Shown here piece by piece: positions 1,467 through 33,856 of a DNA stretch of 64,000 bases; positions within the stretch are counted from its first letter, which is position 1, and each line of letters starts with the position of its first letter. The notes beneath the pieces are model-generated. The model ran no database searches and was not told the DNA's origin. It worked only from the letters and a program-made list of their open reading frames with translations. The stretch covers positions 347,510,001 through 347,574,000 of the forward strand of contig OZ024740.1 of assembly GCA_964016885.1 (NCBI GenBank), given 5' to 3'. The DNA is from Eledone cirrhosa (taxonomy: Eukaryota). A program made the translations under genes and the position numbers.

Positions 1467-1592
1467 TTCCAAACAATTGTTTCATTATAAGTTTTCTACA
1501 AGTTTGGGAGAATGTTTCCAGTTTATGTAGAAGCCTAATATATATTCATGTAAGAATATATTTAGGTGGGCACTTATAAATCATCAGTGGAA
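1467..1592 (-). ncRNA. Type-I hammerhead with 97-nt helix-II domain inside a pLTR-like fragment (~1283-1800)
   Basis: Minus strand: TTCCA-CTGATGA-tTTATAAGT...ACTTATAAt-GAAA-CAATTG-TT-TGGAA. Helix I 5 bp, helix II base 8 bp, palindromic helix III. Confidence 0.8.
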
Positions 1593-2400
1593 GCCCGTTA
1601 AACATTGATATAAGAAAACAATTTCTTACCGCTGTCAAAAATCATGTCCGTAAAGTTGCTCTCTCTCACCTTGAATGACCGCCAAATTTGAAATTCCAGC
1701 AGATTTTGACTGAGCAAGTATCATAGCGACACGAAGCGGGAAGGGGAGACAACCCACGATCCACGAAATGAGGAAAAAAAATAATATACACGCGGTTTAA
1801 TATATATATATATATATATATATATATATATATATATATATATATATATATATATATATATACACACATATATATATATATACAATGAGTGGAAGAACAT
1901 TCGGAATGAAAGTGTTAACTTTTAGTGCATAATGTGATGAAGTAAATACTAAATATGTGCGTGATACATAAACTTCGGTTTTACCTTACAACAAAACGAA
2001 ATATGCCTATTGTCTATTGATTGTTGGGATTCCACATATTGACATCGTTGTGGATGGAATTAATACTGGTAGATATTTCATCCTCTACGAAATGGGTGAG
2101 ATTTTAAAAATGGTTGAATGGTGTTAATAGTAGAATAGGCATAAACATCTATTAGGATTAAACTATCAGTTTGACAATCCCTTTCGTCCTACAAGATTAT
2201 TATGCCAATTCTACTATTAACACCATTCAACCATTCCTTTCAAAGGGTCATGACCTCAACTAAAGTGTATTACTTTTCATCTTAACACCATATGAAAAAA
2301 ACAATTTGATTCGTTAGTTCTTCAAACACCTTGAAATAAGGACATGATACTAACATACTACTAATTCTGAATAAAATTATTATTGAATAAAATTATATTA

Positions 2401-2545
2401 TTATTGCTTTTGAAAACAGCTGGTGATATGCATGTAAGTAAAAATTCTCTTTATCTGATATTTTGTAACTAACCTTACATAGATCAATAAAGGAGTATAA
2501 CTACAATGTATTATCATCATCTAGAAACGATCGTAAAGCAGTGAA
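2401..2545 (+). ncRNA. Type-I hammerhead, U3-A8 core variant, 107-nt helix-II domain
   Basis: TTATTGCTT-TTGAAAA-...TGGTGATA...TATCATCA...-GAAA-CGATCG-TA-AAGCAGTGA. Confidence 0.7.
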
Positions 2546-2785
2546 GTATATCTCTAATGACTTGATATTTTATTTCATTGTTTTAACTTATATATATATA
2601 TATATATATATATATATATATATATATATATATATATATATATATATATACATGTAAAGTTATATTTAAAATTGTTGGGTTACAACTAGTAAATATTTAT
2701 AACTGATATAAAAGCACTCGACAAATATTTGGAGTATATTTACAATATTAAATAAATGGAAAACTATATTTATAAAACCATATTT

Positions 2786-30090: not shown

Positions 30091-33000
30091 TAACATTATT
30101 TTAGAAATTAATTTAATTTAAATGTTAGTTAACCTATAAATTTAATTTAATTAAAATTCTACTACAGATGAGAATATAAAATATTGTGTAATCATAAATT
30201 GTGAAAACCCTTTAAATATTACTAATATATACTTAGTAATTTAATTTATAGATTAATTTTAATTTATTTAAACCTTTTATTAAAATTCCTTTACAGATAA
30301 AATATAACAAAATATCGTGTATCCAATGACAGAGAAATAATTTTTAGTATTATAGACCTAATTAATATACATTTTAGAAATATATTTATAATTTGGTTTT
30401 AAATTTAGTCAACCTAAAAATTTAATTTAATTGGCTTAAAATTAGTATCCTTATACAGACGTATTGCAGAGTGTCATGTAATCATAGAATGGGATGTGTT
30501 TTGGATGTATACCTAGTTAATATATTCTTTGCAATTTTTGAAAAAATATGTATATGTATGTATGTATATGTATGTGTATGTATGTGTGTATATGTGTATA
30601 TATATATATATATATATATATATATATATATATATATATATATATATATATATATATATATATATATATATGTGTATGTATATGTATATGTATATGTATT
30701 AATTTTGATTTCTATTTGCATATAATTATATTCTGCTATTGATAAAATACAATATCTGTTTTATTTATTATATACCTAATTAACATATACTATAGAAATT
30801 AATATATAATTTTTAATTTAGTTAACCTATAATTTATATTCTACTACCGATGTAATACTTTATTTGTTTTTTCCCTATTACTAAATTCATTTCCTAATAT
30901 TGATACCATAACGTTAATAACTTTAATTTAGTTATACTATAATTAATACTCTACTACTATTTAACTTCAAAATTCTGCTTCAAATATTATAAACCTAACT
31001 AATTTACACCTTAGAAATCAATATGTTAACTATCTTTAGTTTAGTTAACATATAATTAATGGTATACTTATTTTGAAATGCATAATTTTGCCTTATTTCT
31101 TGTATTTCCTAACACTGAAACTATGTAAAAACATATATTGGGATCCAGATACAGATAATATTCTATGTTTCTTGAAACATATATTTACTATAATCCCCTT
31201 CTCCAACCCCCCCCTTTCCCCCATACTATTATCATCTGTGTTTGTAAGCGTGTATGTATGAATATATATGTAGGTAGCTGTATATATGTTTGGGTATTTA
31301 TATCTGAATATAAAAATACATATATGCGCATGCAAATAAGAATGTAAGATTGTGTGTGTATATATATGTGTGTATATATATATATATATGTATATGTATG
31401 CATGTGTGTGTATATATATGTGTATGTGTACATATGTGTATATGTGTATATGTGTATATGTGTGTGGGCGTGTATGTGTGTGTGTATATATATATATGTA
31501 TATGTGTGTGTATGTATGTGTATATATATATGTGTATATATATGTATGTCTCTCTATATATATGTCTATCTTCGTATCTATGTGGGTATATGTGTGTATG
31601 TACATGTATGCACATGTATATGTTTATGTGTATATGTGTGTATGTGTATATATGTACGTGTGCGCACATATATATGTGAGTGTGTGTGTGTGTGTATATA
31701 TATATATATGTGTATATCTATGTGTGTATATATGTCTATATTCGTATGTGTATATATATATATATATATATATATTATTTATTATTATAATATAACTTAT
31801 GTGTATGTGTGTATATGTGAGGGTGTGTATATGTATATATATGTATATATATGTGTAAAAATATATATGTGTATGTGTGTTTTTTGTGTGTGTGTATATA
31901 TATGTATGTATATATGTGTGTATGTGTGTGTTTGTATGTGTGTTTGTGGTTGTATGTGTGTGTGGGTGTATATATATAAATGTATATGTATGTATATATA
32001 TATATGTGTATATGTATCTCTATTAATGTGTGTATATATGTATATGTATATACCTTTTTCTTTGTATGTCTGAGTTGGGTGAGAGTGTAGTGGGTTTTGT
32101 ATGTATATACGCATATATGGATGCGTATGTATTTGTATATATGAGTATATGTAAGTGCGTATGTATGTATGAATATATTTCTATGTCTATGTATGAGTAT
32201 ATATGTGTGTGTATGTATGTTGTGTGTGTATGTATGTATGTGTCTATGTGTGTATATATATATATATATGTGTGTATATGTATGTATGTATGTGTATGTA
32301 TGTACATGTATGTCTATGTATATGTGTATGTATATATATGTATATATATATATATATATATATATCTTTATTTTATATATATGTGTGTGTGTGTATGTGT
32401 GTGTGTGTATATATATCTTTATATATGTGTATGTGTATGTTCGTGTAGGTGTATGTGTGTGTATGACTATATATGTATGTATGTATGTCTGTATGTATGT
32501 ATATGTATGTGTGTGTACATGTATGTATGTGTATGTATATATATGTGTGTATATGTGTATGTATATATATATATATATATATGTGTATATATATATATAT
32601 ATGTATATGTATCTCTATTTGTATGTGTATATGTGTATAGGTATATACCTTTTTCTTTGTATGTCTGAGTTGTGTGAGAGTGTAGTGGTGTTTCTATGTA
32701 TATACCGATATATGGATGCGTAAGTATTTGTGTGTATGTATGTATGTATGTCTGTATGTATTTGTGTGTATATATAGGTATGTATGTGTATATCTGTATG
32801 TATATAAGTATGTATGTGTATGTATATGTGCGTGTATGTGTATATATATGTGTGTCTATATATGTATGTGTGATTATATGTGTATATATGTGTGTATATA
32901 TATATATATATATATATATTTATATGTATGTGTGTATATGTGTGTATGTGTGTATATGTATATGTTTATATATGTGTGTGTATGTGTGTTCTAAGTGTAG

Positions 33001-33701
33001 ATGTGTGTATATGTATGTATATATATATATGTATATATATATATATATATATATATGTATATATATATGTATATATATATTTTCTTGATATATTTCTTTT
33101 TTCTTTTTTCTTTTTCTTTTCTTTCCTTTTTAATTTTTATTTTTTATTTCTTAGTTTATAGATACATCTATAAATAAGCAGTCTGCCCAAACCGTTGAAT
33201 ACTGACCTCTCCCCCCCTCCCACCTAATTTCTGTATCTTGATCTAGATGTGTGTGGCAGTGTTTATGTGAGTGAATTAATATCCATGTGCTTATGATAAT
33301 ATTATATCCACATATATATATGTGTGTGGGGGTGTGTGTGTGTATGTATGTTCGTAATTATGTGTATGTTTATGCATATACGCGCGCGTGTGTGTGAGTG
33401 TACGGATATGTGTGAGTATGAGAATATGTGTATACACTTATTTCATATTTATGTGTCTATACGCATCTTATCTGTGCATTATAAACTTACAGAGACATTA
33501 ACCTTGAAATTTTGTATTTGCATGCATCTTTTTGGCATGCATATGCATGTTGAGCATACATCTTTGTATAAATATGTGTACGGGGTAGTTAAATGTATAT
33601 ACACACACCAAATTGCATAAAACCTTTTGTATTTTCATTGGTCAATTTTGTTCCCAAACGGACCTGAAATTTTGAATTGTTGTTATTATCAATAAATATA
33701 T

Positions 33702-33856
33702 TTCATTATTTCTGAAGACGGCGTATATGTGTGTTTGGTATGTATATTTAATCTTGATAGTTTGTATAATTTTGTATAATTTTGTACATAGATCTGTTGA
33801 ATATGCATGCCAATTCTAACACATATATATCCTAGAAACGATCGTTAAATAATGAA
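33702..33856 (+). ncRNA. Type-I hammerhead with 116-nt helix-II domain
   Basis: TTCATTATTT-CTGAAGA-cGG..TATATGTGT...ACACATATA..CCta-GAAA-CGATCG-TT-AAATAATGAA. Perfect 10-bp helix I. Confidence 0.85.

Follow-up and report, generated by a model that had tools for sequence, protein, structure and literature searches.

Penelope-like element hammerhead motifs with long, covarying helix II arms in several lineages of the Eledone cirrhosa genome

Hammerhead motifs with an enlarged helix II were analyzed in a 64,000-nucleotide (nt) stretch of Eledone cirrhosa DNA (assembly GCA_964016885.1, contig OZ024740.1, positions 347,510,001 to 347,574,000, forward strand), hereafter the window, and in copies across its 3.0-Gb host genome. 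The window harbors five such motifs, assigned to families A to E, in the pseudo-long terminal repeats (pLTRs) of Penelope-like elements (PLEs) and in tandem repeats without an open reading frame (ORF). They represent several lineages of one known kind of PLE hammerhead, which is real, under selection and very abundant, and not one class. The reading that we hold to be the more probable, with reservations given below, is that these are pLTR and tandem-repeat type I hammerheads with a covarying helix II of 48–126 nt, which likely cleave themselves and whose helix II arm likely forms the 5′ leader of the element RNA.

Results

Hammerhead Motifs of the Window and Chance Controls

All five motifs lie where the original prediction, made from the letters of the window, had placed them, with 97, 107, 54, 48, and 116 nt in the spacer between core and GAAA and with the helix III sequences it had given. 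Family A (33702–33856, +) is a type I hammerhead with a 10-bp helix I, a CUGAAGA core, a palindromic helix III, and a helix II rod of 116 nt (33719–33834); cleavage is predicted after 33846. Its sister family C (2401–2544, +) has a U3-A8 core and a 107-nt helix II, and its element terminates in (TA)n at 2588. Family B (1467–1592, −) carries a branched 97-nt helix II consisting of a base stem and two hairpins, with U.U at the base. Family D (12989–13082, −) combines a U3-A8 core with a 54-nt helix II, and its helix III was confirmed to be a true hairpin with a palindromic loop; helix III in A, B, C, and E consists of palindromes of 6–8 nt. Family E (26542–26620, −) has a 48-nt helix II and an 8-nt palindrome.

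Three details of the original prediction held in part. The core was said to be kept in all five motifs; it is canonical in A and B, but C and D lack CUGANGA owing to the U3-A8 swap of their families, and the E copy has A6G at 26612. The family E majority reads CUGAUGA, and this copy is probably dead owing to A6G. Helix II was described as closed by a paired base, which is true only at 12989 (G-C); U.U occurs at 1467 and C.A at 2401, 26542, and 33702, and pairing of helix II in these four motifs begins at the second base. Helices II closed by U.U, or with U.U at the stem base, are described among natural hammerheads (PMC3088659, PMC7229834). Lastly, the motif with a CCATGG helix III near 3380 (3373–3438, −) does show that helix III sequence, but its core is deleted; its relatives keep the core, with spacers of ∼49 nt.

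The motifs exceed chance. A strict scan (core with at most one mismatch, helix I of at least 4 bp, palindromic helix III, and spacer of at most 200 nt) gave 4 hits in the window; 40 dinucleotide shuffles averaged 0.025 hits, and none reached 4. The hits correspond to three of the five motifs and to a hammerhead with an intermediate, 31-nt helix II at 2785–2850 (−), which the original prediction had not listed. Folding z-scores against shuffled sequences were −6.7 for A, −4.4 for B, and −3.9 for C, and were weak for the 54-nt arm of D (−1.0) and the 48-nt arm of E (−0.5).

The genome was further sampled in 140 evenly stepped stretches of 10 kb (1.4 Mb), allowing any base at core positions 3 and 8; Watson-Crick pairs were needed in helix III, so that family D was left out. 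Positions 3 and 8 were C-G (93) or U-A (10) in 103 of the 117 hits, compared with 0.6 such hits in shuffles, whereas all other combinations together gave 14 hits against 8.3 in shuffles. Spacers of 41–130 nt were found in 22 motifs, against 0.3 in shuffles. The core of a type I hammerhead is represented by the canonical form in A, B, and the majority of E and by U3-A8 in C and D.

Covariation and Folding

Compensatory double changes, proposed earlier as a check on helices I and II, were observed in all three alignments made, namely, those of A/C, B, and E. In the A/C alignment of 14 sequences, 95.6% of the cells were paired and 11 of the 34 pairs had changed doubly; besides the 3-8 pair itself, these lie in helix I (three), at the base of helix II (four), in the middle stem (two), and in the apical stem (one). 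None of 500 shuffles scored as high, a comparison and not a probability, and slid controls were 23–57% paired. In family B and four relatives, the base stem and the two hairpins are preserved and double changes affect 9 of 35 pairs; in family E they were found at 7 of 23 pairs. These alignments, together with the exchange of C3-G8 for U3-A8 in two families, indicate clear selection on the hammerhead fold.

The palindromic helices III do not form a hairpin alone; as self-duplexes of 8–10 bp they were calculated at −6.4 to −10.0 kcal/mol. The minimum free energy structure of the family A monomer is a rod (−47.8), compared with −44.6 for the hammerhead fold. A contact between terminal loops I and II is unlikely given the length of the arm. 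As judged from core, covariation and fold, the motifs are likely to be type I hammerheads that still cut RNA.

Arm Shape and Length

The original prediction proposed a single expanded architecture shared by the families, which the comparison contradicts: the shapes are unrelated, and spacer length forms a continuum in this genome. A/C has a long rod as its insert, B a two-hairpin branch, and D and E stems of two tiers; overall, the inserts take at least four shapes unrelated to one another, and no motif common to the inserts of A/C, B, D, and E was visible on comparison. Among the 103 sampled motifs, spacers measured 11–20 nt in 46, 26–36 nt in 34, 42–62 nt in 14, and 88–119 nt in 8, and one hit with a 248-nt spacer is probably due to chance. 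Palindromic helix III was as common in short-armed (63/80) as in long-armed motifs (18/22) and hence is the norm of PLEs rather than a mark of the long arm. Within family A, 10-nt tandem duplications in the loop give rise to helix II spacers of 116 and 126 nt.

The further claim that length-limited searches would miss such motifs is upheld by the published descriptors that were consulted. The pLTR descriptor of PMC4209133 specifies a stem II of 3–7 bp and a loop of 3–10 nt, its example allowing ∼26 nt from core to GAAA, and a search with the core only used a spacer of 7–17 nt (PMC8557442); the helices II of the window, with 48–116 nt, fall outside both.

Copies and Host Elements

Copies were searched genome-wide for each family. 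Forty places were scored each for A, B, C, and E, with 96–100% identity, from 203, 1,311, 1,525, and 1,534 candidates, respectively; all 40 scored copies of A (best 40 of 203 candidates) were identical over 181 nt. A 24-nt motif spanning the cut site of family A has 6,842 exact matches in the genome, and a pattern spanning the tip and helix III of the A/C superfamily, the largest of the families, has 15,158, with none for the reversed control. The words of family D were too common for a genome search, and its copies were taken from sampled loci; the 1.4 Mb of samples contained 63 of its 3′ halves, with the core in only 6.

Families A, C, and D adjoin ORFs for reverse transcriptase (RT) and endonuclease (EN) in tandem and inverted arrays. 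The family A ORF (28513–30090, +) is 5′-truncated and resembles the Hydra clade of PLEs, with an RT, a CxCX5C linker, and, at the C terminus, a GIY-YIG-like domain. By inspection, RWR, DKT, and CNCRNKANC are present in the family A protein, and its C-terminal EN is without CCHH. An inverted copy of the family A pLTR (28165–28538, −) ends in (TA)n one base past the predicted cut site. Insertion into (TA)n, as in Hydra-clade PLEs, was observed; the tandem unit of family A, which has a long simple-repeat 3′ region, measures 6.5–6.9 kb and exceeds the norm of <3 kb for the clade. A second Hydra-clade-like ORF (14176–15500, −) has the family D hammerhead in its 3′ region, and at three loci this hammerhead is located 1,143–1,184 nt downstream of the ORF. 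The Hydra-like ORFs gave no Pfam match. Assignment to Naiad elements was rejected since the EN is C-terminal, and a programmed frameshift in four tandem copies of family A was dismissed as a difference in homopolymer length that is absent in another copy.

Families B and E consist of tandem units without an ORF, of 1.0 kb and 530 nt, respectively, each with (TA)n ends and one type I hammerhead; the B unit of the window spans ∼1284–1797 (−). The notion of several distinct families holds: A, C, and D are 3′ pLTR hammerheads of Hydra-clade-like PLEs, and B and E lie in ORF-less derivatives. ORF-less hammerhead units derived from PLE pLTRs have been described (bioRxiv 10.64898/2026.07.22.740005).

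Some observations accompany these families. In A and C, the motif TGAG(C/T)TC precedes the start codon by ∼40 nt; it also occurs twice in the B unit and lies in the helix III loop of family D (13000–13008); it is found at loci L198 (∼7187–7195), L202, and L200. Locus L201 (4292–7951, +) has an open, PLE-like ORF of 1,219 codons, into which a long Asn-rich segment is inserted and which matches nothing in Pfam; it is nested in a family C element, and its own terminal repeat has a hammerhead-like core that the scan did not extend to a full motif. Further long-armed families outside the window are represented by L175:7060–7176 (−), L126:3425–3514, L236:313–387, and L203:5459–5538 (−), with spacers of 88, 59, ∼49, and 50 nt, respectively, and a U3-A8 core in one.

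Ends of Genomic Copies

The 5′ ends of genomic copies pile up within the hammerheads. For the A group, 27 copies were considered, from loci that had not been picked by their upstream part (L266–L277 were dropped since the query held upstream sequence, and L303 was re-classed as native); 11 of these start at an A seven bases before the core. This places a candidate RNA start in the 5′ strand of helix I (33705–33711, +), 142 nt before the cut. If both arms of a head-to-head pair start at this point, the expected gap is 252 nt, and 14 of the 18 pairs less than 500 nt apart had gaps of 222–282 nt (hand count, among the 100 places listed). In family D, the start falls within the spacer in 94 of 108 hits; the left edge of the pile-up is sharp, its mode is 41 nt before the cut, and for most genome copies the first base lies within helix II, at window position 13034 or shortly after it. 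The sequence at this point fits an initiator consensus. An inverted partner was present within 110 nt in 54 of 100 D hits. It was also observed that mini-insertions of family D, joined head to head with two 3′ ends and with one 17-nt and one 97-nt tail, are very common. In the pile-up analysis, the CAGT row was dropped as a (TA)n artefact, and families F, H, and CTAG were left unused as the reference copy is maybe truncated.

Start sites are likely the simplest reading of these pile-ups, as the pLTR of Drosophila virilis Penelope has an internal promoter, along with an intron (PMC2377424). The 3′ ends behave differently from what a self-cut RNA might leave: only three family A copies end at the cut and pass into (TA)n, compared with 6,842 that read through, and ribozyme-made 3′ ends were rejected on this ground. 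Instead, ends in (TA)n occur at two preferred distances past the cut, namely, 70/208 nt in A, 53/191 in C, 191/322 in B, 17/97 in D, and 57/172 in E. The scarcity of 3′ and 5′ ends at the cut is in line with the anole element, in which cleavage is protein-assisted and uncut RNA is the template (PMC11167929).

Some fragments in the window start close to a cut: a family C fragment (2889–2938, +) begins 3 nt after the predicted site, and a head-to-head pair of family E fragments (27020–27117) starts at −2 and +6 from it. At L182:1253, L298, and L270–L277, which belong to two A-group subfamilies, one and the same foreign sequence meets the copy precisely where helix I starts; this sequence may be the tail of a different repeat for which this point serves as a site of insertion or template switching.

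Sequence Features of the A/C Arm

The arm of the A/C superfamily contains a near-invariant apical motif (33755–33794, +) composed of a 3-bp stem, a 4 × 3 internal loop, a 5-bp stem, and a variable loop. The lower stem has been rewritten across subfamilies, while the apical motif and a donor-like hexamer stay. In four subfamily consensuses this hexamer, GTA(T/A)GT, lies at a distance of 32–34 nt from the candidate start; a branch-like pentamer and a conserved AG come after it, outlining a candidate 54-nt intron within helix II (33738–33791, +). The arrangement occurs by chance in 1–4% of shuffled spacers in each case, values which are not independent and belong to a pattern picked post hoc. No spliced joint at the hexamer was present among the 15 of 39 joints listed, and the contigs of run X4 represent the unspliced form; the stretch used for the joint search (L002) breaks ∼200 nt after the hammerhead, making joints to an acceptor near the start codon invisible, and contig depth was not used. 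Genome copies devoid of the segment gave 0 matches with either acceptor tried, a search that is uninformative because PLEs keep introns on moving.

In the arm and core, five A's (33751, 33813, 33827, 33834, and 33838, the last being A15.1) read as G at 17–41% depth in X4 and close to 0% in X1–X3. X4 is a run of contigs of unrecorded type from a sample other than that of X1–X3, and the A>G result is confined to it; T>C was seen at one place only. Among 136 fetched genome copies, G was absent at four of the sites and present in 4 copies at one. The five X4-only sites listed all fall within the 36 A's of the arm, out of 177 (p ∼0.0003, or ∼0.02 if four further A>G rows lie outside). The pattern resembles A-to-I editing acting on duplexed sense RNA. 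Inosine at position 15.1 would change hammerhead cleavage; a literature search found no paper on this effect.

Discussion

Proposed Mode of Action and Points Against It

According to the reading favored here, self-cleavage would probably be slow and take place in dimers. Since a palindromic helix III cannot fold alone, the monomer would rest as an inactive rod, and a second copy or a protein would be needed to cut. Helix II may have lengthened separately in several lineages, insertions being tolerated as long as the base stays paired. The pLTR promoter is proposed to fire at or inside the ribozyme, in helix I in A/C and in loop II in D, which would bring the leader signals inside helix II, and uncut RNA would be the usual template of reverse transcription, starting 17–322 nt past the cut site.

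Several observations weigh against this reading. An untemplated G before the start, as left by a cap, was found in 7 of 29 D copies and 4 of 11 A-group copies only, which is a weak signal. AATAAA is located 8–10 nt upstream of the A-group point, and poly(A)-type processing could make that end; the 5′ pile-ups could likewise be RT stops or fold-back points. Copies that start at the cut are few (2/8 in C, 6/32 in E within −6 to +8, 0/17 in A, and 0/10 in B). The covariation shuffles yield no probabilities, as the sequences are related and the structure was derived from their consensus. Separate origins of the arms are argued from unrelated shapes and not from a tree. No autonomous partner of B or E was found in the loci examined.

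Alternative Explanations

One alternative, which we regard as highly improbable, is that the motifs arose as chance matches in AT-rich DNA or are relics that have lost catalysis and persist for some other reason. One window copy with A6G, another without a core, and the Rfam results would fit this explanation: hammerhead models had no match in the window at the gathering score and none at E ≤10 for A or B, and no hammerhead was among the matches listed at E ≤1 (best 150 of 206). The same models, however, also miss the short hammerheads of the window with 12-nt spacers. The shuffle controls argue against this explanation, as does the U3-A8 swap, which preserves a tertiary pair with a known catalytic role. 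The length of helix II could also be neutral, the arm having grown by local duplications and being paired only so that the core can form. The continuous range of lengths (11–119 nt), the 10-nt duplications of family A, and the abundance of short-armed families (46 of 103 hits with ≤20 nt) favor this view, but the apical motif and hexamer persist where lower stems no longer align, and double changes extend far from the core; we consider neutral length unlikely.

A function of the arm itself has been envisaged in two forms. It could be a dedicated RNA module that binds the RT of the element or a host protein and so controls cleavage, as the original prediction had suggested; this is possible, if rather unlikely. 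The retention of the stem-internal loop-stem sequence above a rewritten lower stem in A/C, the two-hairpin branch of B kept through double changes, and the anole PLE hammerhead, which is described as cutting only with protein (PMC11167929), are in agreement with a module. No motif is visibly common to A/C, B, D, and E, though, and invariant pairs say nothing on structure; the same bases could matter as DNA. Alternatively, helix II of A/C could hold an intron, or at least a donor, with splicing and ribozyme folding being mutually exclusive. The hexamer at a fixed distance with its pentamer and AG points in this direction, as does the intron of the D. virilis pLTR, which runs from 46 nt past the start site as far as helix I (PMC2377424, PMC4209133). 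The candidate introns of only 42–54 nt, along with the unspliced X4 contigs and the failure to find a joint or a segment-free copy within the searches described above, speak against it. The hexamer is moreover missing in B and D, and an intron in E was rejected as its donor is the helix II strand and its hexamer is not kept in relatives. An intron is quite unlikely in our estimate.

Combining these elements, the first 145 RNA bases of A/C could constitute one hammerhead in which the arm acts as a switch that hides a splice donor, presents a protein-binding tip, and undergoes editing by a host adenosine deaminase at several sites, A15.1 among them, so that editing and splicing would determine the fate of the RNA, be it cleavage, translation, or copying. 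We regard this scheme as very unlikely; if it were true, it would represent a natural ribozyme tuned by RNA editing with ∼15,000 genomic copies.

Comparison With Known Hammerheads

Returning to the favored reading of self-cleaving pLTR hammerheads, the closest known motifs are those of PLE pLTRs, which have a helix II of 6–8 bp, a palindromic helix III, and dimer cleavage, with a U3-A8 variant in Schistosoma (PMC4209133). The present motifs share with them the type I fold, the location in pLTRs, a palindromic helix III suited to dimers, and an additional base where helix II starts, but their helix II is 48–126 nt long and contains internal loops or a branch, and their palindromes measure 6–8 nt. 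Hydra-clade PLEs resemble the hosts of A, C, and D in their (TA)n targets, a hammerhead near the 3′ end, and unpaired bases flanking helix II. The spacers listed for Hydra motifs reach ∼26 nt, and the longest spacer in the whole table is 52 nt, in PLE-X1_sMoe of a spike moss, which is marked as deviating (PMC8557442; Craig et al., 2021, File S2). Families D and E match this size, whereas A, B, and C have roughly double that length.

B and E resemble animal non-LTR retrozymes (PMC7229834) in being tandem units that lack an ORF and carry a single type I hammerhead, although their units are larger (1.0 and 0.53 kb vs. ∼300 bp) and helix II is long. A large insertion is also known from the discontinuous mammalian Clec2 hammerhead (PMC6765202), which still cleaves. 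In contrast to Clec2, a 3′ UTR (untranslated region) motif of a single gene with an insertion of several hundred bases, the insert here is a structured helix II in high-copy retroelements. The portions of the retrozyme preprint, PMC13725137, and PMC6765202 that were consulted contain no helix II of 90–120 nt. Sizes of ∼50 nt have precedent. PLE arms of 90–126 nt that branch or bear a conserved tip were not found in the literature covered, and earlier work with longer-loop descriptors, mentioned in PMC8557442, may hold cases.

Implications

Counts of animal hammerheads are based on length-limited patterns. Spacers of 27–130 nt, beyond the ∼26 nt of the published example descriptor, were found in 44 of the 103 sampled motifs; scaled to the genome, this corresponds to an estimate of ∼94,000 motifs (68,000–126,000) with spacers of 27–130 nt and ∼17,000 (7,000–34,000) with more than 80 nt. 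Naiad elements are reported to lack hammerheads yet to have “half cores” 35–50 nt apart (PMC8557442), which the length blind spot may explain. For the role of PLE hammerheads, a direct handle is offered by those families whose ribozyme contains a fixed candidate start site and whose arm shows editing-like changes.

Other Features of the Window

A short-armed hammerhead with a 12-nt helix II at 36841–36891 (−), with an inverted twin at 41169–41219, served as an internal comparison. A large inverted repeat (36819–37343/40717–41242) holds two short-armed hammerheads and is adjoined by a frameshifted remnant of a canonical PLE (34457–35876, −) with RT and GIY-YIG Pfam matches. Other retroelements of the window include a broken long interspersed nuclear element (LINE) with endonuclease-RT (21354–24360, +) and a non-LTR RT ORF of 1,141 codons (43446–46871, +). 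Near-perfect palindromes of 100 and 86 nt are present at 20687–20786 and 55853–55938; their matches to microRNA families were below the gathering score and are not meaningful. A tandem satellite of 74-nt units with ∼98% identity occupies 49755–52101.

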